DNA of 64,000 nucleotides from the IMG/VR virus record IMGVR_UViG_3300017963_000189; one strand, given 5' to 3'. This DNA is from a virus (lineage: Duplodnaviria > Caudoviricetes). Both the position numbers and the translations under genes were made by a program. Below the pieces are notes generated by a model that was given only the letters and a program-made list of their open reading frames with translations, searched no databases and had not been told where the DNA came from. Shown piece after piece: positions 18,134 through 59,664 of this stretch; positions within the stretch are counted from its first letter, which is position 1; each line of letters opens with the position of its first letter.

Positions 18134-18155
18134 GAAATGTTCTCCCTATGTGTTG

Positions 18156-18484
18156 TGGAGTCGGCGGGAATTGAACCCGCGTCCAAAATATTTCAAAATC
18201 CAACTTCTACGATTATAGTTTGATTTTGTTATTTTACGTCACGAAAAAACCAAACAAAAGTTGTGACAACGAGTTTTGATTTACTTTGAGTTGTCGCCCT
18301 CAAAGGTTCTACCGATTATGACATCACTTTACCCAATATCGGTGTCTTGGAGTGACGGCTTAATTCGTTGTGATTAAGCAGCTAATTGTAATTCGTTGCC
18401 AGTTATTTTAGGCTTTTGGATTTCCCACTTCCCAGTGAATCGCTATTAAATCTCTCAGTTATCCTGTCGAATCCGATCGACCCC
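18156..18484 (-). ncRNA. ssrA: tmRNA (one-piece); tag reading frame 18400-18374 = GNELQLAA*
   Basis: 5' GGGGTCGATCGGATTCGAC, 3' GGACGCGGGTTCAATTCCCGCCGACTCCA, resume context AAAATAACT|GGC, tag ends LAA-stop. Confidence 0.95.
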
Positions 18485-19266: not shown

Positions 19267-20433
19267 CTATTTTTTTAATAAATGTGGTTGAGCTTCAAGT
19301 TGTCCTGCTCTTGTTACTCTCACAAATTCAGCATTCTTTCTAAATTCTTCTATATTTTCAGCACCTACATAACTCATAGATGATTTTATTCCATCAGTTA
19401 TAGATTCTATTATTCGTTTTACTTTCCCTTTATACGGGATAAGTTTTGAGTTACCCTCTATGTTATTATCGTTTTCGCCACGATCTAACTTACTCGATTG
19501 ACTGGCCGACCCGCGATATTGTTTGAATAATTGTTCGTCAGGAAAATTTCCTACTCGTATCAATCTACCTGGCGTTTCCTTAGTTCCGGCAAAAAGTGAT
19601 CCCATCATAACCATGTCTGCTCCAAGAGCAATCGCTTTTGCAGCGTCACCGGGTGTCCGTATACCACCATCTGCTATGATAGAAATTCCACTTCCCTTGA
19701 GCACTCGATATACCTCAGCTATCGCTGATGCTTGTGGAATACCTACTCCGGTTCTTATTCTTGTCTCACATAATGACCCATTTCCTATACCAACTCTAAC
19801 ACTATCTAATCTCCATTTAACTAAATCTTTAGCTGCATCAGCAGTAGCAATACTCCCACCTATAAGTGTTACGTTGTCGCCGTACTTCTTTCGTATCTTC
19901 GTGACGGCCCTCTTGAGTAAAATGTGATGTCCATGAGCTACATCAAATAAAAATGTCTTGACACCTCTGTTGTGTAACTCTAAAAATCTTTCATAATAAT
20001 CACCGGTTACTCCAATCGCACAAGCAATCATTTGTTGAAAAGCAAACCCGTCTGCAGGTTCAAGTTGAGTTGTCGCAAATCCTGTATTTGATTCTACATA
20101 ATTATTATTTTCATACATACAACGATTATGCGGTTGATATTTATACCATTCCCTAAACTTTTCTCTCAAATACATTACTTGTTCGGCTTGTTCCTCTATC
20201 GTCATAAAACGATGTATGAAACCAACTCCGCCGAGCTCCCATAACTGGTACGCCATTTCATGTTCCGTTACAGTATCCATTGGTGAAGATACTATTGGAA
20301 TACGAATCTTGAACATCCCATTATGAGAAAATCCGGTTGTAAGATCACAATCAACCCTTGATAAAACTTTACTATATTTCGGGCGTAATTGTAAATCATC
20401 AAATGTATATGTATCTGGAACAATATGCGTCAT
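19267..20433 (-). CDS. guaB: IMP dehydrogenase/GMP reductase family (CBS-less)
   Basis: SSPMDTVTE, DVAHGH, GIGNGSLCETR catalytic loop, IIADGGI, GIKSSMSYVGA; GuaB versus GuaC not resolvable by eye. Confidence 0.85.
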   Translation of the reverse strand: MTHIVPDTYTFDDLQLRPKYSKVLSRVDCDLTTGFSHNGMFKIRIPIVSSPMDTVTEHEMAYQLWELGGVGFIHRFMTIEEQAEQVMYLREKFREWYKYQPHNRCMYENNNYVESNTGFATTQLEPADGFAFQQMIACAIGVTGDYYERFLELHNRGVKTFLFDVAHGHHILLKRAVTKIRKKYGDNVTLIGGSIATADAAKDLVKWRLDSVRVGIGNGSLCETRIRTGVGIPQASAIAEVYRVLKGSGISIIADGGIRTPGDAAKAIALGADMVMMGSLFAGTKETPGRLIRVGNFPDEQLFKQYRGSASQSSKLDRGENDNNIEGNSKLIPYKGKVKRIIESITDGIKSSMSYVGAENIEEFRKNAEFVRVTRAGQLEAQPHLLKK

Positions 20434-20495
20434 AACCTTTCCCCTATTTATAAAACCTCTTTTCTCTTATACTACCGAAAACCTATTTTTGTTCC

Positions 20496-21140
20496 CTAAA
20501 CCTTTCCACAACACTTCTTATATTTTTTTTGGCTACCACATGGGCAAGGCTCGTTACGACCTACTTTTTTCTCATTCTTGATGGGCTCAAGTTTCCATTC
20601 CCTATCAAACATCAATACACCATTCAAATGATCAACCTCATGTTGAACGGCGACACTCTCTAATAAACTCGTATCATTTTCCATATCATCACGATCTTCG
20701 GCAGCAAAATATAATGTTTGATCCTTTTCCCATACTATACTTACACCATTATATATTCCTACCCAATCAACCTTGACTACTATATTTTTCTTTCTTTTCG
20801 TCCTTACACTGGCTCCAGGAAATGAAACACAACCCTCTTGATACCACGTTTCGCCATCACTCTCGATGATTGTTGGATTGACTAATACTATTGGTTCTTT
20901 CGCCCGAATTACACAAATCTTCTTTCGAATACCAATCTGGGGCGCTGATAGACCAACATCATTTTCATTACGTGCCGATAAAGTAGCCCATAGTTGTTCG
21001 GCTATATCTCCTGCTTCAGTTGTGTCCTTTACTTTAGAACTACGTTTTCGTAATACCGTTTCGTCCGTTATAATAGGGAGAGCACGAGACTTCGCGCTCT
21101 CCTTGAGTGTTTCTTTTAATTCATCTAATGCTTTGCTCAT
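20496..21140 (-). CDS. def: Peptide deformylase with C-terminal SEC-C Zn motif
   Basis: [24 protein letters not shown]; tail [21 protein letters not shown]. Confidence 0.92.
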
Positions 21141-23887: not shown

Positions 23888-24883
23888 TTAATACCCCAAA
23901 ATTTCGCTTATATGTTTTTTAGCTTGTTCTATACGATCATTATAATCGTCGCCATGAATTATCTTATATTCCCAATTACGATTGTCTAACTCTTTCCTAA
24001 TCATTCCATAATGTTCAACCCTACGATTTGAAAATGTCCTTGTTCCATCGTCAACCCAAGGCACTTCAGGTGTCAAAAGTAAATGTAAATGATACTTACT
24101 ATTCCACGACTGTGTCGCTATCCACGCTGGACACGGAACGTTATATAACTCCGCCCACGTCTGTGTCGTCATTAAATCCGTATCACAAATCAATAACCGG
24201 TTCGCGTGTCTCGCAACTTCATCTTCCCATTGTAATTGACCAGCAGCTATCCGTGAAAAATCCATTGAATTTATCTGAGCGTTCCTTTTCATATTGTCAG
24301 TATATACCCTACCATATTCAGGTACAAAAGCTGTCTTGTAATGTACGGCTAATTCGTGTGCCATTGTTGTCTTTCCAACAGATTCAGGTCCAACTAATAC
24401 CACTTTCTTGGCGAAAAAATGACGAGCTTCCTTTGGTATCATTTCCCAGTTCGTCATTGGATTTCCACGAATATCCGTCCCTGATATTGGAAATGTAACT
24501 CTCAACTTGTCCACACATTCATGTTTGATACCAAAAATCTCAGATATTTGATTACCATATTCCTCAGATGTAAATACCACATCTAAATTGCTTGGTGTAT
24601 TATCCTTGATTATTTGTGTCCACACTTCCCAAAATTTTACCGGACCTTGATCATAAGTTTCAGGATAATCAGGTACATTTGTCAAGTGAATGACATTTGC
24701 TTTTGGGAACTTTTCTTTGATCCAATTATAACGAAGATAACCGGGTATAAATTCCGACTCCAAACTACATATTAATATTGTTAAGTTTTTCGCCCGTTTG
24801 AGCCCTTCCTCAATCAAATATGAATGTCCATTGTGTAAAGGATAAAACTTACCTAATATCAACCCATGTTTATACATGACCAT
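23888..24883 (-). CDS. nadR: NadR-type NMN adenylyltransferase/nicotinamide riboside kinase (no HTH)
   Basis: GKFYPLHNGH (HIGH-like), ISGTDIR, GPESVGKTT P-loop, LICDTD, PWVDDGTR. Confidence 0.92.
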   Translation of the reverse strand: MVMYKHGLILGKFYPLHNGHSYLIEEGLKRAKNLTILICSLESEFIPGYLRYNWIKEKFPKANVIHLTNVPDYPETYDQGPVKFWEVWTQIIKDNTPSNLDVVFTSEEYGNQISEIFGIKHECVDKLRVTFPISGTDIRGNPMTNWEMIPKEARHFFAKKVVLVGPESVGKTTMAHELAVHYKTAFVPEYGRVYTDNMKRNAQINSMDFSRIAAGQLQWEDEVARHANRLLICDTDLMTTQTWAELYNVPCPAWIATQSWNSKYHLHLLLTPEVPWVDDGTRTFSNRRVEHYGMIRKELDNRNWEYKIIHGDDYNDRIEQAKKHISEILGY

Positions 24884-26192
24884 TTCCCTCTATTATTTCT
24901 TCCCATGTTATTTTCTTACCACTACTATTGTTTGACATCGTTAAAAATTCGATGGCTCTCGAGGCAGCTGTGTAAAGCCAGCGGGGATTGTCGCCCCAAT
25001 AATCGTTGTGAATGTATACATTATCCCACTGTGAGCCTTGTGACTTGTGAGCCGTTATCGCATATCCATATGTTGTTATCAAAACGCTTCTACTCAATAT
25101 AGGTTTCTTGTAAAACTTTCTATCAATCAAATGTTCCAAATCAAAAGGTAATGTGGTTATATCTATCTCAGGATGATAGATTGATGGGCGTACCGTATTC
25201 GGGAATAAAAACATATCATACTCTCCATCACGACCCATTATTTCTACTTTACAATAATAACAATCTCCAAAACTATCGCCATCTTTGGAATAGATTTCTA
25301 ATGGGCGAATGTCGATTACTTTGTTTACCCGGAATGTCTCCGAATTCTTGTAAGTAGGTGAATTAGCAATCACGATTATTTGATCAGTCTTCCGGAGCGC
25401 ACTTGGTTCTTCACCAAACTTGTGTGTTCTGGCCAACTTGTTCAACAATACTCGTGTCTTGTTTTTCGCCACAATGAAAACACTATCATCATAGTTTTTT
25501 AAGCCGTCAAGCCATTTCTTTCCAACTTCCTCAATGTCTAAAACATCCACTTCATCTTTTGACTTTGTTGGAACACAGGACTTCTTTATTTCTCTCAACT
25601 TTGTAACATAGTCAAGGATAACTCCATCATGACGTTGAACATTTTTTAACTCGTAATGTGGATTCCTCAATACTTTTGGATCATCACCGACTGGCTCAAG
25701 TTGAAATCCATCACCTATCTTTATTACTTTCGCCCCATGTTTGGCGATGTGTTTGTTGATGTCGTTGTTTACAAATGTGTCTATCATACTCGATTCATCT
25801 ATGATAACAAGTTGTCCTTGTGTAAAACTACACTTGGCATTCCAGTTTCCATCGTCGTCGGGCTCGCCATAGAGCAAACTGTGTAACGTCCTAAACTTTT
25901 CCTTGTAATCAATTAACCCGGCTAACCAATCTGCTGACTTGTGTCTCAATACCTTGACCGCAGCATTTGTTGGTGCTGATACATAAACATCATAATGTAA
26001 AATGTCACGAGCATATGAAAATATGTTTTCTATGATTGTGGTTTTACCTGTTCCAGCATATCCTGCTAACTTGAAAGTATTCAAGTTTTGATCATACGTT
26101 TTTGGTTTCTTTAGAAATTTCTCAACTTCCAGTAACGCTTCCTTTTGATCCTTTGTATAACTAATCTTTTCACTACGTTGTTTGAGTATCAT
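24870..26192 (-). CDS. SF1B helicase (Dda/RecD2-like)
   Basis: GYAGTGKTT, APTNAAVKVL, IIDESSMI, IGDGFQLEPV, YAITAHKSQGSQW, YTAASRA. Confidence 0.9.
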   Translation of the reverse strand: MILKQRSEKISYTKDQKEALLEVEKFLKKPKTYDQNLNTFKLAGYAGTGKTTIIENIFSYARDILHYDVYVSAPTNAAVKVLRHKSADWLAGLIDYKEKFRTLHSLLYGEPDDDGNWNAKCSFTQGQLVIIDESSMIDTFVNNDINKHIAKHGAKVIKIGDGFQLEPVGDDPKVLRNPHYELKNVQRHDGVILDYVTKLREIKKSCVPTKSKDEVDVLDIEEVGKKWLDGLKNYDDSVFIVAKNKTRVLLNKLARTHKFGEEPSALRKTDQIIVIANSPTYKNSETFRVNKVIDIRPLEIYSKDGDSFGDCYYCKVEIMGRDGEYDMFLFPNTVRPSIYHPEIDITTLPFDLEHLIDRKFYKKPILSRSVLITTYGYAITAHKSQGSQWDNVYIHNDYWGDNPRWLYTAASRAIEFLTMSNNSSGKKITWEEIIEGNGHV

Positions 26193-26772
26193 ATAACTCT
26201 CTCCATTTCCTGTAACCTTGTAACGCCATAAAGAAGAATAAGGCGTATAATCCTGCTGTCATATATAATTCTTTGTAAATAAAAACACCTACATAAATAA
26301 CATCTACTGTGATCCATAAAAACCAATTCTCTATATATCGTTTCGCCAGATAAAAGTTGGCGACCAAACTCAATGATGTGGTAAATGAATCTATAATAGG
26401 AATATCCGGTTGTCCAATGTAACCACCTTGATACAATCCCATTATTATACTATAAATGAACCACGTTCCTACTAAAACATACATCATAATGGTTAAAACC
26501 ATTGTGTCTTTTGGACACGCAGCAAATTGATCCTTATACCTTGTTATTGGTGCTGGTGGCTTGTTACGCAGTTTCGCCCAATTATACCATCCATAAAATG
26601 ATTGACACAAAAATACGATTTGTGTTATGACCTCGGCGTACAGGTTCACAGAGAAAAACAAATGTAAATAAGCACTTACTCCAATAATACCTAACGGCCA
26701 CGCAATAACCTTGTTTTGTATAGTAAAATATACACACGCTAATGTGAATAGAACAGCAATAATTTCTATCAT
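26173..26772 (-). CDS. pnuC: PnuC-family nicotinamide riboside/vitamin transporter
   Basis: AWPLGIIG, QSFYGWYNW, DSFTTSLSLVANFYLAKRYIENWFLWITVD. Confidence 0.92.
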   Translation of the reverse strand: MIEIIAVLFTLACVYFTIQNKVIAWPLGIIGVSAYLHLFFSVNLYAEVITQIVFLCQSFYGWYNWAKLRNKPPAPITRYKDQFAACPKDTMVLTIMMYVLVGTWFIYSIIMGLYQGGYIGQPDIPIIDSFTTSLSLVANFYLAKRYIENWFLWITVDVIYVGVFIYKELYMTAGLYALFFFMALQGYRKWRELYDTQTT

Positions 26773-28697
26773 AAGTTTATTGTAACTCCAAGTGTATAGT
26801 TTCTTAAAGCAGCTACATAATAGTTTGCTCCATCATATACATAACCACTATTATAATAATCATTATCAAACACATTGTTTATTGTAAAACTAAATATCAA
26901 CTCTTTGAATGTCGTTTTGAAATATAAATCAGTAACAAAATATGGTTTCATCTTCGTTGTGTTTTCATTATCTAAAAATGATTCTCCCATATATCTACAA
27001 TATACTCCACTCGTAAAATAATGATTTACATTGTAAATCAAGTTCCCGGTGTAAGTCAACTCCGGACTTAACAATGGAGTAACATCTTTGTAGACGCCGT
27101 ACTCTTTTATATTCGATTTATTCACACCTATAAAATTGAACATACTCAAATCTTTTGAAAACTTATATGTTGATTCAATTTCTATTCCTTGTCTTGTACT
27201 CTTTGGTACATTCATTCTCAATGGTAATCCAATGTAACTTAGTTCACCTATGGCGGCGATTTCATTGGTGAAATCCATATGATATAGATTTACATTCAAT
27301 GTGAAGTCCTTTTCAATATACTTAATTCCCGCCTCAATGTCAAGAACTTTTTCTGGCTCAACTTGATAAGCTTCGTGAATGTTATCTTCATTTAGATCAT
27401 CTTCGCCATTGAATAAATCGTTTCGTGTTGGTTCTCTCATGTTTTGACCAATAGAAACATAATACATTCCATACTTTACGCCGACCTTTGGATTCACAAA
27501 TAACCATGAAGTTTTTGGTGGCGAAACACTACCATTGTAAATAAACTCGTTGTATCTTACTTGTACGTCACCAAATAAATCTATGTCTCTCGTTATGTCA
27601 TAACTACCTTTTATAAAACCACTCGCCTCATTCTTGATCCCATAATTCTTGTAAACCTCGTCGCCAATTATATCCATTGAATGATTTCGTTTATAGGTGT
27701 ATAAATGAAAACCCGAGTATAGTTTTAACCTTGTAAAATCATAGTTTACATTTAATATGTTACCTAAATAGTATGAATCTAAATTAAAGTTCAACATATC
27801 CTCTGCCAGAACACCATATGTACCATCTAACTTGATAAAATAGATTGTATTCGTTACGTGTTCACTCATATATGATAATGAATTGAACCAATAATGAAAA
27901 TGATCCTTTTCGTTGGGCGACAAGTAATTCATTTGACGATTGTAACTTAAATCATTTTCGTGTGTCGCCAGGTACGCCATTTCATTCTCTTGATTTCCAT
28001 AAAATGTTATATACTTGAATGCATAGTTTTCCTTGAATACTCCACCACTTAAATAAAATGAATAACCATAATGACCGGAATTGTCACGGTAACCTTTCGT
28101 ATTTACCCTTGAAAATCTTAGATTCAAGCCAATACCATCTTCATTTATACCGAAACTCTGTTCCGCCATGAACTTGTATGTATTGTATGATCCATAATTG
28201 AAATTCAACCTTGAGTATTCTTCGTCTAAAGTCTTTGATGTGAAATTGAGTGATCCACCATAAGAAGCTGTACCATTACTTGTAGTTCCAACTCCACGTT
28301 GTATTTGTACATCTTGAACGGAACTCAAAAAATCAGGATAGTTGTTGAAATAAACTCCCATATCTTCAGGTTCATTTAGTGGAACACCATCTAATGTAGC
28401 ATTGATCCTTGTTTGATCAATCCCGCGAAGGCGAAAATAAGAATAACCATAAAATGTTCCCATGTCAGAATAAAACTGAATCGCGGGAGTGTATGTCAGC
28501 ATCGCTGGAACATCTTTGTCGTCTAAAGGTATTTGTTGTAAATCATCTTGAGAATATGTTTTCTCTGTAATAGGATTATCTTTTATTCTAAGATGTCCTA
28601 CAACTGAAATTTCTCCATCATATTCATAAACCTTTAGTGTATCTTGTGAAAATACAAATGAAACAAACAACAATAAAATAACCATTATTTTAAACAT
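26769..28697 (-). CDS. TonB-dependent outer-membrane receptor (start taken at MFKIMVILL)
   Basis: Signal peptide; plug motif RLRGIDQTRINATLDGVPLNEPED...QIQRGVGTTSNGTASYGGSLNF; barrel end NNVFDNDY...RNYTLGVTINL. Confidence 0.88.
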   Translation of the reverse strand: MFKIMVILLLFVSFVFSQDTLKVYEYDGEISVVGHLRIKDNPITEKTYSQDDLQQIPLDDKDVPAMLTYTPAIQFYSDMGTFYGYSYFRLRGIDQTRINATLDGVPLNEPEDMGVYFNNYPDFLSSVQDVQIQRGVGTTSNGTASYGGSLNFTSKTLDEEYSRLNFNYGSYNTYKFMAEQSFGINEDGIGLNLRFSRVNTKGYRDNSGHYGYSFYLSGGVFKENYAFKYITFYGNQENEMAYLATHENDLSYNRQMNYLSPNEKDHFHYWFNSLSYMSEHVTNTIYFIKLDGTYGVLAEDMLNFNLDSYYLGNILNVNYDFTRLKLYSGFHLYTYKRNHSMDIIGDEVYKNYGIKNEASGFIKGSYDITRDIDLFGDVQVRYNEFIYNGSVSPPKTSWLFVNPKVGVKYGMYYVSIGQNMREPTRNDLFNGEDDLNEDNIHEAYQVEPEKVLDIEAGIKYIEKDFTLNVNLYHMDFTNEIAAIGELSYIGLPLRMNVPKSTRQGIEIESTYKFSKDLSMFNFIGVNKSNIKEYGVYKDVTPLLSPELTYTGNLIYNVNHYFTSGVYCRYMGESFLDNENTTKMKPYFVTDLYFKTTFKELIFSFTINNVFDNDYYNSGYVYDGANYYVAALRNYTLGVTINL

Positions 28698-28710
28698 AAC
28701 TACCCCTTTC

Positions 28711-28965
28711 TTATCTAAATGCGATAAAGTCCAATTCATCAAGTTTAACTGTTTGGCAAAATGGATGTGAATCTTTCGGGTCTTTTGGTTGCATAACCAC
28801 TATTCCCATTTCGTCTTTTGTTTCGCCGTCTGGGCTTACTCTTGTCCATTGATGAACTAATGTTACACGACATTCATTATATGATTCATCCTTGAACTTT
28901 ACCCACGGCCCTTCACTCATTTCGATTTTTTTCATCACTTCCCCAATATGTTTTTGTCGATCCAT
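28711..28965 (-). CDS. Hypothetical protein
   Basis: ORF track. Confidence 0.45.
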   Translation of the reverse strand: MDRQKHIGEVMKKIEMSEGPWVKFKDESYNECRVTLVHQWTRVSPDGETKDEMGIVVMQPKDPKDSHPFCQTVKLDELDFIAFR

Positions 28966-33369: not shown

Positions 33370-33743
33370 ATACTCTCTCCGATTTGGATTACTCTACCAT
33401 AAACGTTCTTTGTCCAACCGTTTATCCGTCCATGATTATTTCCAATCAATAGTCCACGTTTATCATTTTTTCCTTTTACTAAATGTGTATAAAGATTTCC
33501 CTTGACCTTACAATAAACTATGTCGCCTACATTACATTCTTCCCACGTCACCGGTTCCAGTGTAACCGGTTGACGAGATTTGATTAACGGCATCATAGAG
33601 TTGCCAGGTTCTTTGGAAATTATTGTCTCTCCATTCAATAACTTTTCAACTTTCCAATTCAAATACTTTCTCCAAAATGGGCTCAAATCGTCTAAAGATA
33701 CGCCAACGGGCTTCCTCTTTGTCGATAAATCCTGCCCAATCAA
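33366..33743 (-). CDS. S24/S26 peptidase-like protein (true start probably internal)
   Basis: GNSMMPLI...VGDIVYCKV...THLVK. Confidence 0.6.
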   Translation of the reverse strand: MIGQDLSTKRKPVGVSLDDLSPFWRKYLNWKVEKLLNGETIISKEPGNSMMPLIKSRQPVTLEPVTWEECNVGDIVYCKVKGNLYTHLVKGKNDKRGLLIGNNHGRINGWTKNVYGRVIQIGESM

Positions 33744-34089
33744 TCTCTCTTATTTGTAGTAAATCCTTTGGTATTGTTGGATAAATGTGTTTTATAAAAT
33801 GTTTGTCCTTTATCCTAACAACAAACCAAAATACTTTCTTGTATGTCTTACCTTGTTTATTCTTATAGTTTATTACTTTTGGTTCACCACTTTCTACCAT
33901 GTCGGGCGAAAACTCAACCCCGAATTCCTCTCTCGTTTCTCTTATCGCTGCGTCTAACTCACTCTCTCCAATCTCTATCTTTCCCTTTGGAATGCTGTAT
34001 GAGCCTTTCCACGGTGCTCCGGTGGGATGTCCTAATAAAATACTATCTTCGTAGATAATAACTAAACCGGCCGATTTCTCTATTCCCAT
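33646..34089 (-). CDS. Nudix hydrolase
   Basis: PKGKIEIGESELDAAIRETREEFG Nudix box. Confidence 0.9.
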   Translation of the reverse strand: MGIEKSAGLVIIYEDSILLGHPTGAPWKGSYSIPKGKIEIGESELDAAIRETREEFGVEFSPDMVESGEPKVINYKNKQGKTYKKVFWFVVRIKDKHFIKHIYPTIPKDLLQIREIDWAGFIDKEEARWRIFRRFEPILEKVFELES

Positions 34090-34116
34090 TTCTCACCTAT
34101 ATATAAATATATAACT

Positions 34117-34494
34117 TTAGTATTTCCAACCATTTTTCTCAACATATATCCATTCACGTAATTCACCACCATATGAATTGTAATCATACATAACTTTTAT
34201 CGTGTCGCCAACTTCAATGTGTCGAATAATAGCTGGGTCGGTAATAACCTTGTTACCAATGTTCGGAACAACCAACACTATACTATTTTCATTCTTCTCA
34301 ATAAAACTACCATCAGGTACAATGATTTCCGTTTCAACCGGTAATGCTAATCCTACAAAAAGAAAACCAAAAATTATTGTAAAAAAAGCTAAAAAGAACC
34401 CGAACCCCATCATTCCATCAAGATCAATCATCACTCCAAGAAAGAATATAATAATACCAACTGCTAAAAGTATTCCACTAATTATCAAAACCAT
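34117..34494 (-). CDS. Membrane protein
   Basis: Two N-terminal hydrophobic helices. Confidence 0.55.
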   Translation of the reverse strand: MVLIISGILLAVGIIIFFLGVMIDLDGMMGFGFFLAFFTIIFGFLFVGLALPVETEIIVPDGSFIEKNENSIVLVVPNIGNKVITDPAIIRHIEVGDTIKVMYDYNSYGGELREWIYVEKNGWKY

Positions 34495-34497
34495 AAC

Positions 34498-35268
34498 TTA
34501 ATCTCCTATATTTCTACTTGTTATCCATTTTTCAATTATATATCTTTTATCCTTTACAAAATATGGTATTCTTGTATCGGCGACCCAGCGTGACCTTTCC
34601 ACCATTCCATCACCAACTACCACATCGTAACTTTCTTTATATACGACAAATCCCCACTTTTGTAAAGGTGTAAGATTATCCCACAAAATACCCTTTTTAT
34701 AACACATATCAACCATTTCTTGTTGATTCTTTCCATTACATTCACTGTGACTATATAATGAACGAGCAAGAGCTTGAATGGAATTTCTCTTGGCATCTTG
34801 TTGTCTCCAAATGAAAACATTTTCTATTTCGCCGACAGTTGGCACATTGAAAACTCGGGCATCAAATAATGCTGATGTCCATTGATCAAAATGACCCACT
34901 CCCTTTAGATTGAAATGTGCGGTGAACGCGGAAGCCATAATGGATGTGATCTTTTGTATCTTTCCACCAAAATACATTTGTGAATCAGGATTCGCCCATC
35001 CATTCAATAAAAATGTGACTTCATCAGATTGCCCGTAAGCCATAAGTATTTGTCCTACATCACGACATAAATCAATAGTCGCTTGTTGAAACAATAATGA
35101 CAAACGATAATCAAATGGTTTCTCGATGTTCATTCGTTTTACCCATGTGTGAAACGCCTTACCATCAAGGCGAACAAACGTAGGCATATTTTGATTTACA
35201 TATCCTAACTCCGGAGAATAAAATTCCTTCTCATACATTTTCATCCGGTCGCCTAATGAATCACTCAT
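34498..35268 (-). CDS. tRNA(His) guanylyltransferase Thg1-like protein (3'-5' polymerase)
   Basis: GDRMKMYE, VRLDGKAFH, AYGQSDEVTF, FDARVF, WRQQDAKRNSI. Confidence 0.92.
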   Translation of the reverse strand: MSDSLGDRMKMYEKEFYSPELGYVNQNMPTFVRLDGKAFHTWVKRMNIEKPFDYRLSLLFQQATIDLCRDVGQILMAYGQSDEVTFLLNGWANPDSQMYFGGKIQKITSIMASAFTAHFNLKGVGHFDQWTSALFDARVFNVPTVGEIENVFIWRQQDAKRNSIQALARSLYSHSECNGKNQQEMVDMCYKKGILWDNLTPLQKWGFVVYKESYDVVVGDGMVERSRWVADTRIPYFVKDKRYIIEKWITSRNIGD

Positions 35269-35567
35269 AATTCCTCCGTCCATTGACAATGTTCATACGC
35301 ATCGTTTGAGCCTTCTTCATACTTTAGTTGCATAACTTCATCTATTTCATCTAAAAGTTCTTTGCTCAATTTTATACCAAATTCCACACAAGATTCTAAC
35401 TTAGCCATCAATACATTGTAACGATAATTTACTTCAGATAAAGTAACGTGTTGTATAAACTTTCCATCAATCCATAACTCCGCATCATAATATGGATATG
35501 AACCATCAATCTTTTTTACGTTACGATATTCTTTATCACGATACTTTTTTCCCATCTTTCTTTCCAT
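35265..35567 (-). CDS. Hypothetical protein
   Basis: ORF track. Confidence 0.45.
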   Translation of the reverse strand: MERKMGKKYRDKEYRNVKKIDGSYPYYDAELWIDGKFIQHVTLSEVNYRYNVLMAKLESCVEFGIKLSKELLDEIDEVMQLKYEEGSNDAYEHCQWTEEL

Positions 35568-52933: not shown

Positions 52934-53004
52934 TCCGCCCACCGGGAATCGAACCCGAATAAGTGAGTTTAGAAGTCACTGTTCTACCATTGAACTATGG
53001 GCAG
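52934..53004 (-). tRNA. tRNA with CUA anticodon (probable amber suppressor)
   Basis: CTGCCCA/TGGGCGG acceptor, GTTC/GAAC D-stem, GTGAC-TT CTA AA-CTCAC (C31:C39 mismatch), T-loop TTCGATT. Confidence 0.75.
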
Positions 53005-53016
53005 ATATAAAAGCGG

Positions 53017-53406
53017 TCAACTTGTGACCGCTTCATTTTCTTTTTGAGCCATTATAGGTAAATCTTTGAACATTCTTCCATTTGTATATACAGCAATCGC
53101 TGTAAGTTGGTTATCTAAATCAGGTTCATGAAAAAGTGAAAAAGGTATTTTCTTTCTATCATCATATTGTTTATCATTGATAGATTGTAACTTGTCTTTC
53201 CACTCATTCAATTCATGACTACTTTCAACAGCGAGAAAAATAAGATAACCATTCTTCCACTCGCTCTTCGGATAGTCCATCATAAACTGAGCAACTACAT
53301 GAGCACCCTGAACTGCTTGATATGATGGATCAAATAATTTAATAAAACTATCCGGTTTCTCCATACATCCTAAATCATTACGAGTTAGAACATATAGCCG
53401 TTTCAT
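53017..53406 (-). CDS. Peptidyl-tRNA hydrolase type 2-like protein (start MKRLYVLT)
   Basis: LYVLTRNDL...AVQGAHVV...FHEPDLDNQLTAIA. Confidence 0.7.
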   Translation of the reverse strand: MKRLYVLTRNDLGCMEKPDSFIKLFDPSYQAVQGAHVVAQFMMDYPKSEWKNGYLIFLAVESSHELNEWKDKLQSINDKQYDDRKKIPFSLFHEPDLDNQLTAIAVYTNGRMFKDLPIMAQKENEAVTS

Positions 53407-53704
53407 TATCCACCTTCTGTATAACGGGATACGCATTAAGAAGTTGTTCAATGTAATCTTGATTTGGCTCATTATCGTCTCTTACCGACCTTTCAATTTG
53501 TTCATAACTTTTACCACGTGCCATACAATAAGCAATATGTTGATGTCTAAATTCATATTTCGCTTGTTGTACTTCGTGTCGTTTTTTATTTGATTCTTTT
53601 CTACTTCGTTCTAATTCCTTAAACTCGATCTTGAGTTGTCTGATTTGTTGTGCTAACCCTTTAAGGTAATATTTTCTCGATTTGATATATTCTTTACGTT
53701 CCAT
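53378..53704 (-). CDS. Basic hypothetical protein upstream of PTH2-like gene
   Basis: ORF; FRHQHIAYCMARGKSYEQIE. Confidence 0.6.
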   Translation of the reverse strand: MERKEYIKSRKYYLKGLAQQIRQLKIEFKELERSRKESNKKRHEVQQAKYEFRHQHIAYCMARGKSYEQIERSVRDDNEPNQDYIEQLLNAYPVIQKVDNETAICSNS

Positions 53705-53979
53705 TTTAAATCTCCTTTATATTATTGTTTCATTTTTTATGATACATTACCACTTGTTTCAATAAAAATGAAACATTAAGGAGGCTTAAAACTTTTTATC
53801 TACGTAAAGCCCTACGTCCACTTAATCATTTTGATACTCCTATAAAATATCCATTGATTGATATACATATACTTACACTATTGAAAATGATTTTTGTTCC
53901 AAAATCTTCATCCCAACCGTAAGATATGTGTTGACCTATATATTTTTCGTAATTTAATCTCATAACATATATAAATATA

Positions 53980-54123
53980 CTATTTTTTAATTTCCCCTAA
54001 TCCTTTACACTTTGTACACGCTACTTCCATATATACCGGTTGTCCGTCCAATAGGGAAATCGGGACTAATCGTTGTCCCGATCCCTTACAAGTTGGACAT
54101 ATTTCTTTTTTACTTTTCGCCAT
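53980..54123 (-). CDS. 47-aa DnaJ-type Zn-finger miniprotein
   Basis: Read by hand: MAKSKKEICPTCKGSGQRLVPISLLDGQPVYMEVACTKCKGLGEIKK* (two CxxCxGxG). Confidence 0.7.
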   Translation of the reverse strand: MAKSKKEICPTCKGSGQRLVPISLLDGQPVYMEVACTKCKGLGEIKK

Positions 54124-55426
54124 CAGTCTTTACCTTTTTTGTACGCGGTTTACGCGGTTTTGGTAAATACTTAATTTCATTTATAGAATGAATATGATAA
54201 CGACCCTCATAATCACTTGGATTTGTGGCGACAAGATTATAACTAATACGAACCTTTTTATAATCCGATTGTTTCGTCCTCAATTTGAACTTTTCAGGAA
54301 ATACATCAGAACCGATATAAATTTTTCGTTTCTCGCCATCTATAAAACCATTATGTGATTCATTTTGGAATCTTAAAACTAATTCGCCAACATCTTCATG
54401 TGTTTCAATAAACTCAATAGGCGGACAATGATTACTCACTGTTGATGTGATCATATGCCATACTACATAACAAATCTCACCAATCTTTTTCAATACCCAC
54501 CAAATAGTAGTGAATACAACTCCAATAACACTAAATATAAAACCAAATACCAACCCCACAGGTTTCAAAATAGCAACAATCGTATTGATCCACTTTTCTG
54601 CGGTTTCTTTTCGACGTTCCTCTTTAGCATCAATTTCTTCCTTGTGAGCCTTGTAATATTCGTCTTGTTGTTTCTTGAATTCGGCTTCTTTTTTACGGCG
54701 TTCCGCAAGACGAGCGAACTTTTTGTCTTGTCGTCGTTCTCGTATATTACAAGATTTCTTAATGAGAAAGTTGAAACATCCACGATTGAATAGAAATACA
54801 CCTATACGATATAATACCCAAAATGTGACCACCATACCTAATAAAATAAGTAATCCCATTCCAACTACATATCCTAACATTCCCCATTCAATGGCAACCA
54901 ACCAACCGGCAAGCATTACAAGTAAATCCCATACTACACTTAAAAACCAAAATACTGCCCATAATACCCAATACACAACAAAATATGGAATGGCGAAAAT
55001 AACATGAATACCATAACCTACCCATGCTACTGCATTGTCAAGGAATAATAAAGATATGAAGAATGTTGTAATGAATGCTAACATAGAAATAATTAATGAA
55101 AACGAAAAAGGATTTTCGTCTTTTAATGCTTCGAAATGTTCAGGTAACGATGGTATAACAAGACCTATCAATTTTGTTAGACCATAAATAATATAGGCGA
55201 AAATAAACAAAGGAAAAGTAACTACCATCAAAAGTGATCCCCAAAACATAAATTGGTAAAACGGACACTTATGAGTAACTAACTTTTCGCCCATACCATA
55301 CCAACTTCTCAACCATTGGTAATAACGATACCTGGCATCTGAGACGCCCATCGTAATGGTATCTTCGACACCAAACAACTTTTCGGAAGCGTCTCTTGCT
55401 TTAGATTTTGCTTCCCATTTACTCAT
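54110..55426 (-). CDS. Multi-pass membrane protein
   Basis: Many hydrophobic segments with central charged coil. Confidence 0.7.
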   Translation of the reverse strand: MSKWEAKSKARDASEKLFGVEDTITMGVSDARYRYYQWLRSWYGMGEKLVTHKCPFYQFMFWGSLLMVVTFPLFIFAYIIYGLTKLIGLVIPSLPEHFEALKDENPFSFSLIISMLAFITTFFISLLFLDNAVAWVGYGIHVIFAIPYFVVYWVLWAVFWFLSVVWDLLVMLAGWLVAIEWGMLGYVVGMGLLILLGMVVTFWVLYRIGVFLFNRGCFNFLIKKSCNIRERRQDKKFARLAERRKKEAEFKKQQDEYYKAHKEEIDAKEERRKETAEKWINTIVAILKPVGLVFGFIFSVIGVVFTTIWWVLKKIGEICYVVWHMITSTVSNHCPPIEFIETHEDVGELVLRFQNESHNGFIDGEKRKIYIGSDVFPEKFKLRTKQSDYKKVRISYNLVATNPSDYEGRYHIHSINEIKYLPKPRKPRTKKVKTDGEK

Positions 55427-55638
55427 TTGGACACCTCCGTTGAATCAGTTGATGTTGAGTCAGTTAATGTTTCGATAACTTGTAACAAACTATCTCTTTC
55501 TGCTGTTAGAGCGATAACAGCTTCAGAATCTTCGGAAACTCTCGCTTCCTCAAGATGATTCGTTGATTGCCATGAGAATATAAAAACTAAGACAATAACC
55601 AAGATAATAATACCTGCTCTTACATAATCATTCATAAT
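55423..55638 (-). CDS. Small membrane protein
   Basis: Track ORF 55423..55668; TM helix; start approximate. Confidence 0.45.
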   Translation of the reverse strand: MMNDYVRAGIIILVIVLVFIFSWQSTNHLEEARVSEDSEAVIALTAERDSLLQVIETLTDSTSTDSTEVSK

Positions 55639-55858
55639 ATAACCCTTTCTTTTTGATGAATGTTTCACCGATTATAGTGTATATCTTCTTTAACTAATAA
55701 TTCGTTATAATGTTCCAACCAGGTTAAAAAAACTTGTCCTTTAGTTGTAAATTCATTTTTATCAATAGGTTTTTCGCCATGTTTCTCACATAACTTCTCA
55801 TATCGTCTATAATCTCGTAGTAAATCCTTGTCCATAATAACCCTTTCATTTTAGATAG

Positions 55859-55930
55859 TAGCGTGTAGCAGATTCGAACTGCTAAGGCAACAGGATATGA
55901 GCCCGTGCTGGACAACCAATCCGACACGCC
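55859..55930 (-). tRNA. tRNA-Met/Ile2(CAU), atypical D-arm
   Basis: ACGGG-CT CAT AT-CCTGT; AGCAG-TTCGAAT-CTGCT. Confidence 0.8.
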
Positions 55931-55939
55931 ATTCAACCG

Positions 55940-56012
55940 TGGGTCTGGTTGGAGTTGAACCAACGATCTTCGCCATGTCACGACGACGACTTAACCTCTT
56001 GTCCACAGACCC
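55940..56012 (-). tRNA. tRNA-Val(GAC)
   Basis: Cloverleaf; loop GT GAC AT. Confidence 0.88.
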
Positions 56013-56024
56013 AATATAACAATT

Positions 56025-56534
56025 TTAAAACCATTTGTCAAGGAAATTCTGGATTGTGTCCTCTTTTCCTCTCTTTATCCACCATTCTTTTCTAAGTAAT
56101 CCCTTAAAAACATATATCTCGTGTGTTAAAAAATTTGTTACTCCAAATAAAATCAACCCACTAAAAAATACCCATGACCATGTTTGTAAAGTCATTGATA
56201 TAACTGCTAATACATATCCACCTAAAATACCTACAAAATATGTCAAGTATTGAAATCCTTGTCTTATTATTTTCGCCCCATGCCATCCATCAAACATGAA
56301 CGCTGGTTTAACAATAAATCCTAACCACTTCTTTCTCGTTCCATCTTCATTATATTTTCGTTCCCACGCACTATCAGGATCAACCATATACCACGACCAC
56401 CAACCACCTTTTGGCAACCAATCAAAAATTGAATCTTCATAATAATATTGTAGACCATCTTCTATATCATTGAATATAATAGAAACTATCCACAACACTA
56501 AGGCGACAAAAAATAATATAATAAATAAAAGCAT
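56025..56534 (-). CDS. Membrane protein
   Basis: TM helices; FDGWHGAK motif. Confidence 0.6.
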   Translation of the reverse strand: MLLFIILFFVALVLWIVSIIFNDIEDGLQYYYEDSIFDWLPKGGWWSWYMVDPDSAWERKYNEDGTRKKWLGFIVKPAFMFDGWHGAKIIRQGFQYLTYFVGILGGYVLAVISMTLQTWSWVFFSGLILFGVTNFLTHEIYVFKGLLRKEWWIKRGKEDTIQNFLDKWF

Positions 56535-56551
56535 CTTATCTCTCCCATTTA

Positions 56552-56866
56552 TTATAAATAGTGTTCATTCTTTTCTTTCAACCATTCCATTAATAATTTA
56601 TTCTTTTCGCCGACATAAACAGGACACCACTCAAGAAACTCAAGCGGTTTCACTGTTCCATATGGAGCTCCAGTATCCCAGTGATACTCCATATCAAGAA
56701 ACTCCATTGTAAACTTTTGTCGTATTCCTATAAAACCTTGTTTCTTCTGATGATATACTCCAAGAGTAAAGTTACGAGCTAATATCATATATAAACCGGT
56801 ATGCTCACACTTTTCTATTGGTAAATAATCCTCAACATTTGTTGTATATCCCATACAATACTCCAA
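56552..56866 (-). CDS. Hypothetical protein
   Basis: ORF track. Confidence 0.55.
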   Translation of the reverse strand: MEYCMGYTTNVEDYLPIEKCEHTGLYMILARNFTLGVYHQKKQGFIGIRQKFTMEFLDMEYHWDTGAPYGTVKPLEFLEWCPVYVGEKNKLLMEWLKEKNEHYL

Positions 56867-56875
56867 CTTAATTTG

Positions 56876-57001
56876 TGGTATTTGTAGGATTCGAACCTAA
56901 ATTCCGGTGTATCAGACCGACGTGTTACCGTGAGCGGTTATCCAATAAGATTAACCGGTCTCTTATTGGCTTCCCTTTGTGCTCTATTACACTACCATAC
57001 C
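56876..57001 (-). ncRNA. tRNA-Ile(GAU)-like RNA with ~50-nt domain inserted in D-loop
   Basis: GTGT/ACAC D-stem, TCGGT-CT GAT AC-ACCGG, T-loop TTCGAAT; imperfect acceptor; insert closed by GAGC/GCTC. Confidence 0.7.
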
Positions 57002-57011
57002 ATTATACTCA

Positions 57012-57108
57012 CCCCGTCACTGCCAGGTTTTACTCAACTGCGCGGGTCGAACACTCCAAACCTACCGCGAATCGGTTTTGGAGACGGTGGAATTGAACCA
57101 CCACGGGA
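57012..57108 (-). ncRNA. Circularly permuted tRNA-like RNA (T-arm first, closed acceptor; YrlA-like topology)
   Basis: TCCCGT-[GGTGG TTCAATT CCACC]-CTCCAAA...TTTGGAG-...-ACGGGG. Confidence 0.55.
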
Positions 57109-57112
57109 TTAG

Positions 57113-57184
57113 TGGGAGCACCAGGAATCGAACCCGGAACTGGAGGTTAAGAGCCAACTGCGTTCCCAATTACGCCATACTCCC
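57113..57184 (-). tRNA. tRNA-Lys(CUU), mismatched anticodon stem
   Basis: Cloverleaf; CT CTT AA loop. Confidence 0.8.
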
Positions 57185-57192
57185 ATAACTAC

Positions 57193-57275
57193 TTTTCACC
57201 AAACTATATCAAAAATACCTACTTTTCACGATCAGTAACCATTTTTCACCAAATGACCTTGAAAATACCTACTTT
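57193..57275. repeat. Two-copy direct repeat TTTTCACCAAA-N-AAAATACCTACTTT, ~50-nt period
   Basis: Seen between tRNA-Lys and tRNA-Phe. Confidence 0.6.
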
Positions 57276-57276
57276 G

Positions 57277-57355
57277 TGGGAGCAGTCGGGATCGAACCGA
57301 CGACACCCCGGGCTTCAACCGAGTGCTCTACCATTCTAATCTGAGCTACACTCCC
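57277..57355 (-). tRNA. tRNA-Phe(GAA), enlarged D-loop
   Basis: Cloverleaf; TT GAA GC. Confidence 0.9.
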
Positions 57356-57485
57356 ATATATAAAATAAAATCGATCTTCCTCACATCCCTTTACTCTTGG
57401 AAGAATTGATAGAATACGTCTATCTCTTGATAAATGATATATAGGCCAGGGTTTGGCGACCCTTACACCATCAACGATTTTATAG

Positions 57486-57605
57486 TTGCGCGAGTAGGAT
57501 TCGAACCTACATCCTTCCTTTCCAATAAGATAACGTTTCTCCAGCGGCCCTGTTAGGACAAAAACGAAGCAACGGTTTTAGATGTTACCATTACACCATC
57601 GCGCA
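57486..57605 (-). ncRNA. tRNA-Gln-derived RNA with anticodon arm replaced by ~65-nt domain
   Basis: TGCGCGA/TCGCGCA acceptor; D-arm TGGTGTAATGGTAACATC identical to tRNA-Gln at 63109; perfect T-arm. Confidence 0.7.
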
Positions 57606-57613
57606 AATTAAAA

Positions 57614-57826
57614 CTATTTTTTTACTACCCTATATTGTGTTTTGCGGTAATTCTTCCAATTCTTTTTCTCTCGTTTTGGAAGATACCACCATCCACAACC
57701 ACCATATATACTACCGGTTCTTTGTAAACAAATCATACAAGGTACGTCTCTTACGTGTTTCCATTGTAATTTTTTGTAGACACTACTATTTGTAGTATTC
57801 TTTAGCGTTTCTCTTTTTCTCGTCAT
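57614..57826 (-). CDS. Small basic Cys-containing protein (paralog A)
   Basis: TTNSSVY...CMIC...KNWKNYRKTQY; start MTRKR within track ORF. Confidence 0.6.
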   Translation of the reverse strand: MTRKRETLKNTTNSSVYKKLQWKHVRDVPCMICLQRTGSIYGGCGWWYLPKREKKNWKNYRKTQYRVVKK

Positions 57827-57868
57827 TTTGATTCTCCTTATGTAATGTTTGACCACTACTAAGGAAAA

Positions 57869-58081
57869 TCATTCTCCATATTCATCATACATTATTACCT
57901 TGTATTGTGTTTTTCTGTAATGTTTCCAATTTTTACGATAATACGTTCTTTGGTTTTCATTACGATTATATTTACAACGTGAACATGAAATGATACATTG
58001 TAGTTCACGATAACGTTTTAACGCTAAGTTGTAAATACGACTGTTAGTTGTTGTATCAACTATTCTTTTGTATTTCGCCAT
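57869..58081 (-). CDS. Small basic Cys-containing protein (paralog B)
   Basis: TTNSRIY...CSRC...KNWKHYRKTQY. Confidence 0.6.
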   Translation of the reverse strand: MAKYKRIVDTTTNSRIYNLALKRYRELQCIISCSRCKYNRNENQRTYYRKNWKHYRKTQYKVIMYDEYGE

Positions 58082-58206
58082 TTGGTTTCTCCTTGAGTTA
58101 AAATTTACTTAACTCAAACGAAACCACTCCCTACATAATGTGTAAAATATGTCATATTATCTCCCGTTTTGACACATAATTGGTAATATATGTCACTTTA
58201 TTTTTG

Positions 58207-58289
58207 TGGTAAGGGTAGGATTTGAACCTACGAACCCTTGCGAGACCGGTTTTACAGACCGGCGCCTTTAACCACTCGGCCACCCTACC
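58207..58289 (-). tRNA. tRNA-Tyr(GUA)
   Basis: Cloverleaf with long variable arm. Confidence 0.95.
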
Positions 58290-58320
58290 AAATCTTATTC
58301 TAAACCAATACTATATCTCA

Positions 58321-58473
58321 TTAGTAATCAACTTTCCCGCGACAAGCTTTACGGGATTGTTCACGTTTTTTGTTTTTGATTTTACGAACACGGTAACGTC
58401 CATCAAAGAAACCATCACGTTTCTGGATTTCTCTCAAAACACCTTTGTTCATATTTATGTTTACATTACTCAT
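58321..58473 (-). CDS. Small basic hypothetical protein (GFFDGRYR)
   Basis: 3' part of track ORF 58321..58515. Confidence 0.5.
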   Translation of the reverse strand: MSNVNINMNKGVLREIQKRDGFFDGRYRVRKIKNKKREQSRKACRGKVDY

Positions 58474-58718
58474 TAGACCATCACTACTTTCTTTTGTTTC
58501 AACCAAGTTAGACAATCATCTAACTCTTGTTCATCTATTTCGCCATTCAATAACTGACACTGCCAGTTCAACATATTTGAGATAACTTCTTTCCTTACAA
58601 ACTTCCCTTTTGGGAAATCATCTAAGGCTAATCCTAACAAAGGCGTAGTATCTACACCAGGATAAGTCTTTCCATTTCTCAAATCGTCAACTACTTCTTT
58701 TACGTCAGCTTTTGTCAT
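58473..58718 (-). CDS. Hypothetical protein
   Basis: ORF behind TTGACA promoter. Confidence 0.55.
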   Translation of the reverse strand: MTKADVKEVVDDLRNGKTYPGVDTTPLLGLALDDFPKGKFVRKEVISNMLNWQCQLLNGEIDEQELDDCLTWLKQKKVVMV

Positions 58719-58797
58719 TTCTCAAATCCTCTCTAAATGTTATACCTAAATATACAACATTTTTTTGGATTTGTCAACTGTTTTCTGGTTTTTTTTG

Positions 58798-58871
58798 TAC
58801 CGCGAGTTGGATTTGAACCAACGACTTCCTGCTTGTAAGGCAGACACTCTAAACCCCTGAGTTACCGCGGC
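58798..58871 (-). tRNA. tRNA-Val(UAC)
   Basis: Cloverleaf. Confidence 0.95.
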
Positions 58872-58885
58872 ATATAATGTTCCTT

Positions 58886-59021
58886 TGGTACGAGAGGCAA
58901 GACTTCATCCTTGCGCTTATGTATTGTAACCTATATGATCAACCTATAAGCCATACATCGTATGGAAGCGAATCAAACATACAGCGCTGACTTTGTTTGA
59001 CTTTTTCTCTACCTCTCTCGC
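58886..59021 (-). ncRNA. tRNA-like RNA (acceptor + T-like arm + encoded ACCA) with multi-hairpin core
   Basis: GCGAGAG/CTCTCGT-ACCA; GCAAG-GATGAAGT-CTTGC; hairpins TCAAACA/TGTTTGA, CCATAC/GTATGG, GCTTAT/ATAAGC. Confidence 0.6.
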
Positions 59022-59036
59022 CAGAGAAACATTGTG

Positions 59037-59110
59037 CTCCACCGGTAGGATTCGAACCTACGACAAGTCGGTTAACAGCCGACCGCTCTACCTGACTGAG
59101 CTACAGTGGA
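59037..59110 (-). tRNA. tRNA-Asn(GUU)
   Basis: Cloverleaf. Confidence 0.95.
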
Positions 59111-59113
59111 ATT

Positions 59114-59188
59114 TGGCTGGCCCGCCTGGACTTGAACCAGGAATGCTTGAGTCAAAGTCAAGTGTGTTGCCAATTACACCACGAGCCA
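59114..59188 (-). tRNA. tRNA-Gln(UUG), CCA encoded
   Basis: Cloverleaf. Confidence 0.95.
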
Positions 59189-59196
59189 ATTTCTTG

Positions 59197-59269
59197 TGGA
59201 GGCCCTGAGAATCGAACTCAGCTCTTCACGGGCTTCAACCGAACGCTTCACCAGGATAGCTTGACCTCC
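59197..59269 (-). tRNA. tRNA-Phe(GAA)
   Basis: Cloverleaf. Confidence 0.88.
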
Positions 59270-59278
59270 AAAAAAAAT

Positions 59279-59389: not shown

Positions 59390-59395
59390 ACTTAG

Positions 59396-59588: not shown

Positions 59589-59589
59589 G

Positions 59590-59664
59590 CGGAACCGACG
59601 GGACTTGAACCCGCAAGCCTTCGCCTTGACAGGGCGATGTGCTAACCAATTACACCACGGCTCC
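59590..59664 (-). tRNA. tRNA-Asp(GUC)
   Basis: Cloverleaf. Confidence 0.95.

Follow-up and report, generated by a model that had tools for sequence, protein, structure and literature searches.

A TonB-dependent receptor encoded with PnuC and NadR in a jumbo phage: a probable two-membrane route from nicotinamide riboside to NAD+

A receptor, PnuC and NadR in one overlapping cassette

We analysed a window of 64,000 nucleotides from the IMG/VR virus contig IMGVR_UViG_3300017963_000189 (161,620 bp, CheckV completeness 70%), which comes from an uncultured jumbo phage, probably of Bacteroidota-type bacteria, with a genome of roughly 300 kb. Our subject is a cassette that places a gene for an outer-membrane receptor beside genes of the PnuC and NadR families of nicotinamide adenine dinucleotide (NAD) salvage. 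All genes of the window lie on the minus strand. The cassette runs from a TonB-dependent outer-membrane receptor (TBDR; 26769-28697; 642 aa from Met16; Pfam Plug and TonB_dep_Rec), through a PnuC-family inner-membrane nicotinamide riboside (NR) channel (26173-26772; 199 aa; PF04973, TIGR01528) and a Dda-like DNA helicase of superfamily 1B (24870-26192; 440 aa; PHROG 325 and Pfam AAA_30, AAA_19 and UvrD_C_2), to a NadR devoid of a helix-turn-helix (HTH) domain (23888-24883; 331 aa; TIGR01526, NF005988, PHROG 3462 and AAA_28), in which a nicotinamide mononucleotide (NMN) adenylyltransferase domain precedes a ribosylnicotinamide kinase domain. The stop of the TBDR and the start of PnuC share the letters ATGA, read directly as an overlap of 4 nt; a further 20 nt are shared by PnuC and the helicase, and 14 nt by the helicase and NadR. 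The genes are thus predicted to be translationally coupled within a single overlapping operon. An earlier note, written from the letters of this window alone, had described the four genes, their order and the 4-nt overlap, and all of these were confirmed together with their coordinates.

The record carries a baseplate wedge gene and phage-family helicases, and the GC content of the cassette (0.32-0.375) matches that of the genome (0.346). The identical TBDR was found on several contigs, one of them 309,378 bp long, and the phage is present in the samples ERZ27256783 and SRR6963591. The note had allowed that the contig might be a chimera of host and phage at this point, which we reject because the gene order on both flanks is the same in two independent assemblies, the 309-kb contig included.

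The TBDR open frame (26769-28742) opens at a TTG (28742). Its likely start is the ATG at 28697 (Met16), which is preceded by AAGGGG, yields 642 aa as in the nearest relatives with the same start point, and opens a signal peptide, MFKIMVILLLFVSFVFS followed by QDT (read by eye), with cleavage between VFS and QDT, that is conserved in two relatives (L125 and L126). The protein ends in GVTINL, a hydrophobic terminus of the type that serves as barrel-assembly signal; most homologues, from phages and cells alike, also close with L, I or F. Both Pfam domains pass their cut-offs (Plug 42 bits against 23.9, TonB_dep_Rec barrel 76 bits against 27), and a TonB-box-like stretch, EISVVG, follows the signal peptide and precedes the plug, within an N-terminal stretch of low predicted local distance difference test score (pLDDT). 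An AlphaFold2 model built with 31 homologues (pLDDT 82.5, predicted template modelling score 0.83) has a plug and a complete barrel. In full-length Foldseek comparisons, template modelling (TM) scores were 0.80 to PqqU (9c4o) and 0.79 to YncD (6v81), and ranged from 0.73 to 0.81 for PqqU, YncD, FecA and FhuA. The ratio of nonsynonymous to synonymous substitution rates (dN/dS) was 0.10-0.12 against copies of the same phage lineage from other samples (86% and 79% identical), which points to purifying selection on the TBDR in this lineage. With an intact frame, a full plug and barrel and a dN/dS of about 0.1, the truncated or non-functional receptor envisaged in the note was not what we found, as far as truncation is concerned.

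No PHROG family matched the TBDR at an E-value of 1e-5. We found no TonB_C domain in the 161-kb phage fragment, a weak absence for a fragment that is 70% complete; the receptor would hence need the TonB of the host. Upstream of the TBDR lie two open reading frames (ORFs) of 84 and 96 aa without Pfam match. SusC-like TonB-dependent transporters (TBDTs) measure about 1,000 aa and have a SusD-like lipoprotein gene directly downstream. A glycan importer of the SusC/SusD type was rejected for a receptor of 642 aa that is followed directly by PnuC rather than SusD.

PnuC reaches 161 bits with PF04973 and 104.4 bits with the NR-transporter equivalog TIGR01528 (cut-off 42.45). It also matches PHROG 1880 and aligns with the PnuC structure of N. 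mucosa (4QTN) at an E-value of 8e-11, keeping the W-x-x-W and Y-N-W stretches. NadR has all the expected motifs of the adenylyltransferase (GKFYPLHNGH and ISGTDIR) and of the kinase (GPESVGKTT and LLICDTD), matches PHROG 3462 with 255 bits, and aligns over its full length with the NadR structures 8x7f, 1lw7 and 9x6f (E 5e-41 to 2e-35). The HTH domain is taken to be absent because the alignment with NF005988, the model of trifunctional NadR, begins at position 63 and spans positions 63-406 of 411. The helicase matches PHROG 325, the Dda-like helicases, with 216 bits. Two loci, L010 and L011, both from this same phage, have it between pnuC and nadR; two closer relatives (L124 and L123) lack it, as do all other TBDR loci, and a role in the NAD chain is improbable.

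Scans for regulatory signals between positions 23000 and 30000 did no better than on shuffled sequence. Sigma-70 promoters numbered 42 against 31.7 +/- 5.8 in shuffled sequence, with a model that does not cover Bacteroidota promoters, and terminators numbered 4 against 3.0, such that the scan does not inform the operon boundaries.

The receptor family in bacteria and in phages

Bacteroidota are the source of the nearest cellular TBDRs (38-42% identity): Flammeovirga, Fulvivirga, Cyclobacteriaceae, Xanthocytophaga and metagenome-assembled genomes (MAGs) of Bacteroidia. In three of these, NrtR (Nudix plus WHD_NrtR), then a varying set of NAMPT, Prs, NADAR, Macro and other genes, and then TBDR-PnuC-NadR form an operon on one strand. 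We surveyed cellular genomes with the TBDR alone as query and one genome per species, which gave 80 loci, and counted over those that were assessable. Downstream of the TBDR and on its strand, NadR was found in 52 of 72 loci, PnuC in 45 of 76, and the two together in 43 of 72. In several Bacteroidota loci the TBDR is paired with NadR but PnuC is missing. Most of the exceptions are Gemmatimonadota, whose neighbouring genes show no consistent theme; three of them have PnuC and NadR-kinase genes convergent next door. On a Gemmatimonadaceae contig, an ORF of 387 aa (L046:7793-8956, minus strand) is convergent with the TBDR, its C-terminal half is an AAA_28 kinase, and a PnuC tblastn match falls in the same ORF, which appears to encode PnuC fused to a ribosylnicotinamide kinase domain.

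These neighbours bear on the ligand. Bacteroides TBDR-PnuT pairs are under the control of thiamine pyrophosphate (TPP) riboswitches and have thiamine salvage genes as neighbours, and the earlier note had compared the phage pair with such thiamine-type importers. The comparison is a misfit. The cellular operons contain genes for NadR, NrtR, NAMPT and Prs, and neither a TPP riboswitch (RF00059 at gathering score) nor any other riboswitch turned up in the window or in ten cellular loci with the TBDR-PnuC-NadR set. We therefore rejected thiamine specificity, and the family appears to belong with NAD salvage because of its NAD-gene neighbours and the lack of TPP riboswitches. By the same context, with NadR in the operon, NrtR at the head of the cellular operons and no TPP riboswitch, the substrate of PnuC would be NR. 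The diderm host proposed in the note is supported, and is probably a member of the Bacteroidota. Our full-text searches found no literature describing a TBDR-PnuC-NadR unit, bacterial or phage, and the paper on the NrtR family (Rodionov et al. 2008, PMC2330246) makes no reference to a TonB-dependent receptor.

The association extends to other phages. A tblastn search with the TBDR against 50,697 GenBank phage records detected family members of 35-39% identity in huge phages, namely LR756502, LR745206 and LR756501/LR756503, all with PnuC and NadR directly downstream. A blastn search of the 7-kb region against GenBank phages returned short patches only. When viral contigs were scanned with the single TBDR protein no relatives were found; they surfaced once an alignment was used as query. 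This alignment-based scan of IMG/VR gave 27 contigs with a full-length member of the family, the largest of 483 kb. NadR lies downstream of the TBDR in 26 of the 27 and PnuC in 16, and neither NrtR nor NAMPT occurs upstream in any of 25 viral loci. The trio is present too in phage-like metagenome contigs. In one closer relative (L124) the order is TBDR-PnuC-NadR-PolB; in another, an 81.8-kb phage-like contig (L123:8001-17650), two tandem TBDR paralogues precede genes for PnuC, an R2K ATP-grasp protein, an unknown product and NadR, beside those for RecA, an exonuclease and DnaB. The earlier note had suggested such a survey of TBDR-pnuC-nadR synteny and had thought a phage-borne receptor unusual; the survey, now run, shows instead a trio shared with three GenBank huge phages, with IMG/VR contigs and with phage-like metagenome contigs.

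A tree of 53 TBDRs (IQ-TREE, LG+C20 with posterior mean site frequencies, PMSF) clusters the window TBDR with five phage-like sequences (support 99), and this clade is sister (support 99) to LR756502, the NrtR-operon Bacteroidia and Gemmatimonadota. Phage TBDRs occur in at least five places among the cellular sequences. A single phage clade was rejected (delta log-likelihood 479, approximately unbiased test p 3e-46), the group having been named after the tree was seen. For each of the window's TBDR, PnuC and NadR, the best relatives rank alike (L124, L123, then the NrtR-operon Bacteroidia clade), and the trio therefore seems to have been inherited as a block. This points to a joint transfer of the genes from a bacterial NAD-salvage operon. 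A TBDR-PnuC-NadR set on a 16.5-kb contig of a 'Deltaproteobacteria' MAG (L022, JAJFLM010000305.1) falls inside a phage-only clade, beside a 362-kb IMG/VR phage; here, a piece of phage genome has probably been binned with bacterial contigs.

NAD supply in this phage and the proposed chain

The phage has other genes of NAD metabolism. A second cluster lies outside the window, about 67 kb from the cassette (L013:5627-10359, contig positions ~93.6-98.4 kb), and encodes in order NadD (TIGR00482), a radical SAM protein, PncB (NF003704), NadE (NF010587), PncA (NF008623) and a 182-aa unknown. NadD, PncB, NadE and PncA all score above the curated NCBIfam cut-offs and make up a complete Preiss-Handler route from nicotinamide to NAD. 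The adenylation domain of an NAD-dependent DNA ligase lies in a 645-aa open frame (L127; contig 150403-151095, minus strand). Such ligases consume NAD+ and release NMN. NAD supply thus appears to be a theme of this phage genome, because the PncA-PncB-NadD-NadE route and the NAD-dependent ligase are present as well as the cassette.

Several further genes deserve mention. The 182-aa ORF beside PncA (L013:5627-6175, minus strand) has homologues at L008:5586-6014, L003:4337-4744 and L105:4314-4721. These proteins have 140-180 aa and no Pfam family, and both a Cyclobacteriaceae NrtR operon and the huge phage LR756501 encode one immediately upstream of the TBDR. The motifs hhhhD-x-H-G and DDKAG, with a weak lead from the Atlas, hint at a HAD-like fold, and the protein could be an undescribed enzyme of the NAD pathway. 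A hybrid sensor kinase of 753 aa (L013:666-2927, minus strand) has PAS, HisKA, HATPase and receiver domains; similar sensor kinases flank the TBDR in some Gemmatimonadota loci, which may be coincidence. No SIR2 domain was found in the phage fragment, again a weak absence at 70% completeness. Within the window, other host-like genes lie near the cassette (19267-21140 and 33646-35289); their products are an IMPDH/NMO-like dehydrogenase, a peptide deformylase bearing a SEC-C motif, a Nudix hydrolase and the guanylyltransferase of tRNA-His. A tmRNA gene (18153-18484, minus strand, 137 bits) and about 34 tRNA genes (52934-63991) are likewise present in the window.

Our results make it likely that the phage cassette is a two-membrane chain from NR to NAD+, that is, the two-gene phage system NARP3 with an outer-membrane receptor added. 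The earlier note had read the locus as a path from uptake to NAD, and this reading gains from the conserved linkage of the TBDR family to PnuC, NadR and NrtR in bacteria and to PnuC and NadR in phages. After infection, the TBDR would be exported by the Sec system of the host, inserted into the outer membrane by the host barrel assembly machinery (BAM), and driven by the host TonB-ExbBD. It would capture a scarce extracellular pyridine precursor, most simply NR, and pass it to the periplasm, from where PnuC would carry NR across the inner membrane. NadR would then phosphorylate NR to NMN, which traps it in the cell, and adenylylate NMN to NAD+. The outcome would be a supply of NAD+ that is independent of the host and free of NrtR control, able to refill a pool drained by NAD-depleting defences, as NARP3 does, or by the NAD-consuming enzymes of the phage itself. 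The ligand, the localisation and TonB coupling of the receptor, the timing of expression and the purpose of the chain are what we infer. As to purpose, resistance to Thoeris- or SIR2-type systems, which the note had favoured, may be one, by analogy with NARP3; the phage's own NAD supply seems just as plausible, because the phage has a Preiss-Handler route and an NAD-dependent ligase.

Several observations weigh against this chain. NR (255 Da) is deduced as the ligand from the neighbouring genes only, and NMN or NAD would fit equally. The chain also requires that a beta-barrel be produced, folded and put to use in the course of a single infection. The link with NAD is not family-wide, since NAD genes are missing from the neighbourhood of most of the 22 Gemmatimonadota homologues. 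Further, 11 of the 27 viral loci lack a recognisable PnuC between TBDR and NadR, with Macro or deoxyribosyltransferase-like ORFs in its place. In the window itself, the helicase gene interrupts the cassette. Finally, NadR is a divergent member that covers positions 2-324 of 325 in the NCBIfam comparison and scores below the equivalog cut-offs (TIGR01526, 247.7 against 341.15; NF005988, 190.2 against 201).

The strongest competing explanation accepts the chain as described and differs in purpose only: its job might be housekeeping, namely to feed the NAD-consuming enzymes of the phage during replication of a genome of ~300 kb, with NadR adenylylating anew the NMN released by the ligase. We regard this as a real possibility, somewhat short of an even chance. 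The phage encodes an NAD-dependent DNA ligase, a complete PncA-PncB-NadD-NadE set and a dehydrogenase, and the cassette sits among replication genes in the window as well as in L124 (PolB) and L123 (RecA, exonuclease, DnaB). In the same direction, NAD synthesis genes were found together with NAD-dependent enzymes in 174 gut jumbo phages (PMC11662467). Yet NARP3 was needed specifically against Sir2-HerA (PMC13464706), and the two purposes are compatible with each other, and the sequence does not separate them.

It is also possible, if unlikely, that the receptor imports another molecule, be it NMN, NAD or an unrelated vitamin such as thiamine, and that its link with NadR is looser than we propose. 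TBDT cargo is usually too large or too scarce for porins. NAD (663 Da) would suit such a transporter better than NR does, the best structural match of the phage receptor is the cofactor importer PqqU, the ligand of the family is itself deduced, and the Gemmatimonadota members mostly lack NAD neighbours. However, PnuC passes the NR-transporter equivalog TIGR01528, the bacterial partners of the family are NadR, NrtR, NAMPT and Prs, and TPP riboswitches were absent from the ten cellular loci and the window. Import of NMN or NAD would still make an NAD-precursor chain, but would call for a nucleotidase in the periplasm, for which no gene was noticed among those of the operons.

We consider it very improbable that the barrel serves mainly to remodel the cell surface, through superinfection exclusion or receptor masking, with transport as a secondary role. 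This would fit a preprint that described 1,603 barrel proteins in huge phages and a transcribed TBDR of Lak phages (bioRxiv 10.64898/2026.10.24.761521), the latter from another family (27% identity). Yet phage and cellular copies of our TBDR agree in the plug, the region of the TonB box and the motifs specific to the family, and exclusion alone would not maintain the tight linkage to PnuC and NadR that was inherited from bacteria. That the cassette arose by chimeric assembly, or is a passenger of host DNA in decay with no function in the phage, has hardly any probability left: its genes are clearly host-derived and come from a metagenome fragment that is 70% complete, but their junctions recur in at least three independent assemblies including the 309,378-bp contig, they show no GC anomaly, their frames are intact with a dN/dS of ~0.1 and a predicted translational coupling, and the trio is kept in many phage lineages.

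Returning to the two-membrane chain, a broader reading can be built on it, which we hold to be about as probable as its negation. The TBDR family would be the first dedicated outer-membrane transporter of pyridine nucleosides or nucleotides and a part of the NrtR regulon in Bacteroidota; jumbo and mega phages would have captured the cassette repeatedly, each time without its regulator; and the success of such phages against NAD-depleting immunity would be tied to extracellular NR. Bacteroidota rely heavily on TonB-dependent receptors. If this reading is right, NAD precursors become a new substrate class of TonB-dependent transport, which would explain how Bacteroidota can scavenge vitamin B3 ribosides at trace levels. 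Large phages would then re-equip the outer membrane of their host for the import of raw material, extending NARP3 to a second membrane, and the published annotation of the same gene in huge phages as 'SusC', for carbohydrate uptake, would be corrected. The presence of the orthologous operon in cultivable bacteria, among them Flammeovirga aprica, Niastella soli and Flexithrix dorotheae, makes the module readily testable.

Comparison with known systems

The closest described system is NARP3, in which the PnuC-like Bas30_87 and the HTH-less NadR Bas30_86 of phage TrudiRoth import NR, make NAD+ and defeat Sir2-HerA in E. coli (Yan et al., Sci Adv 2026, PMC13464706). Both systems unite a phage PnuC and an HTH-less bifunctional NadR in one operon, the window NadR aligns over its full length with 9x6f (E 1.6e-35), and the same conversion of NR to NMN and on to NAD+ is expected. 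NARP3 has two genes, comes from phages of Enterobacteriaceae, and is described without mention of an outer-membrane component (PMC13464706). The window operon, in contrast, is headed by a TBDR, derives from Bacteroidota and has a helicase between pnuC and nadR.

Other phages also rebuild NAD+ with their own genes. Examples are the NAD+ salvage of KVP40 (Lee et al. 2017, as cited in PMC9723777), NARP1, NARP2, and the routes of the NAD-jumbo phages, in which pnuC is present in 68 of 174 and Preiss-Handler clusters are reported (PMC11662467); the window phage shares such a cluster. These routes differ in that they act in the cell or at the inner membrane, and the terms TonB and outer membrane do not occur in PMC11662467. 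The occurrence of pnuC and nadR in jumbo phages was known already (PMC11662467). What the window phage adds to NARP3 is the dedicated receptor, copied from a Bacteroidota operon of which our searches found no description.

Phage-encoded, 22-stranded TonB-dependent barrels have been reported in huge phages, where they are read as devices for carbohydrate uptake or surface remodelling and are not linked to NadR, NrtR or NARP3 (PMC9723777; bioRxiv 10.64898/2026.10.24.761521). The preprint, which proposes surface remodelling, notes in one sentence that NMN-transport genes lie near 22-stranded barrels, and finds the 22-stranded TBDR of a Lak phage to be transcribed. That receptor is a distant one, 27% identical to the window TBDR, and the copy of Lak-B4 has neither PnuC nor NadR within 6 kb. 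The TBDRs of LR745206 and Mar_Mega_1 were called 'SusC' and tied to carbohydrate uptake (PMC9723777). The TBDR of LR745206 (L002, LR745206.1:130794-144719), however, is of the same family as that of the window and is followed directly by PnuC and NadR, and its annotation as a carbohydrate receptor probably needs revising.

Among characterised receptors, PqqU/YncD (9c4o, 6v81), an importer of the cofactor pyrroloquinoline quinone (PQQ), shares the plug and barrel fold and is likewise a TBDT for a small cofactor. With 18-19% identity, another ligand and another genomic context, this is a resemblance at the level of the fold only. The nearest counterparts of the cassette are the Bacteroidota operons NrtR-(NAMPT/Prs/NADAR/Macro)-TBDR-PnuC-NadR of Flammeovirga sp. 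SJP92, F. aprica and MAGs of Bacteroidia and Cyclobacteriaceae, which have the trio in the same order and on the same strand, with 38-45% identity per protein. The phage copies differ from them in having no NrtR, NAMPT or Prs (0 of 25 viral loci). Because NrtR is absent from the phage cassettes, these copies would escape the host regulator that heads the operons they most resemble.

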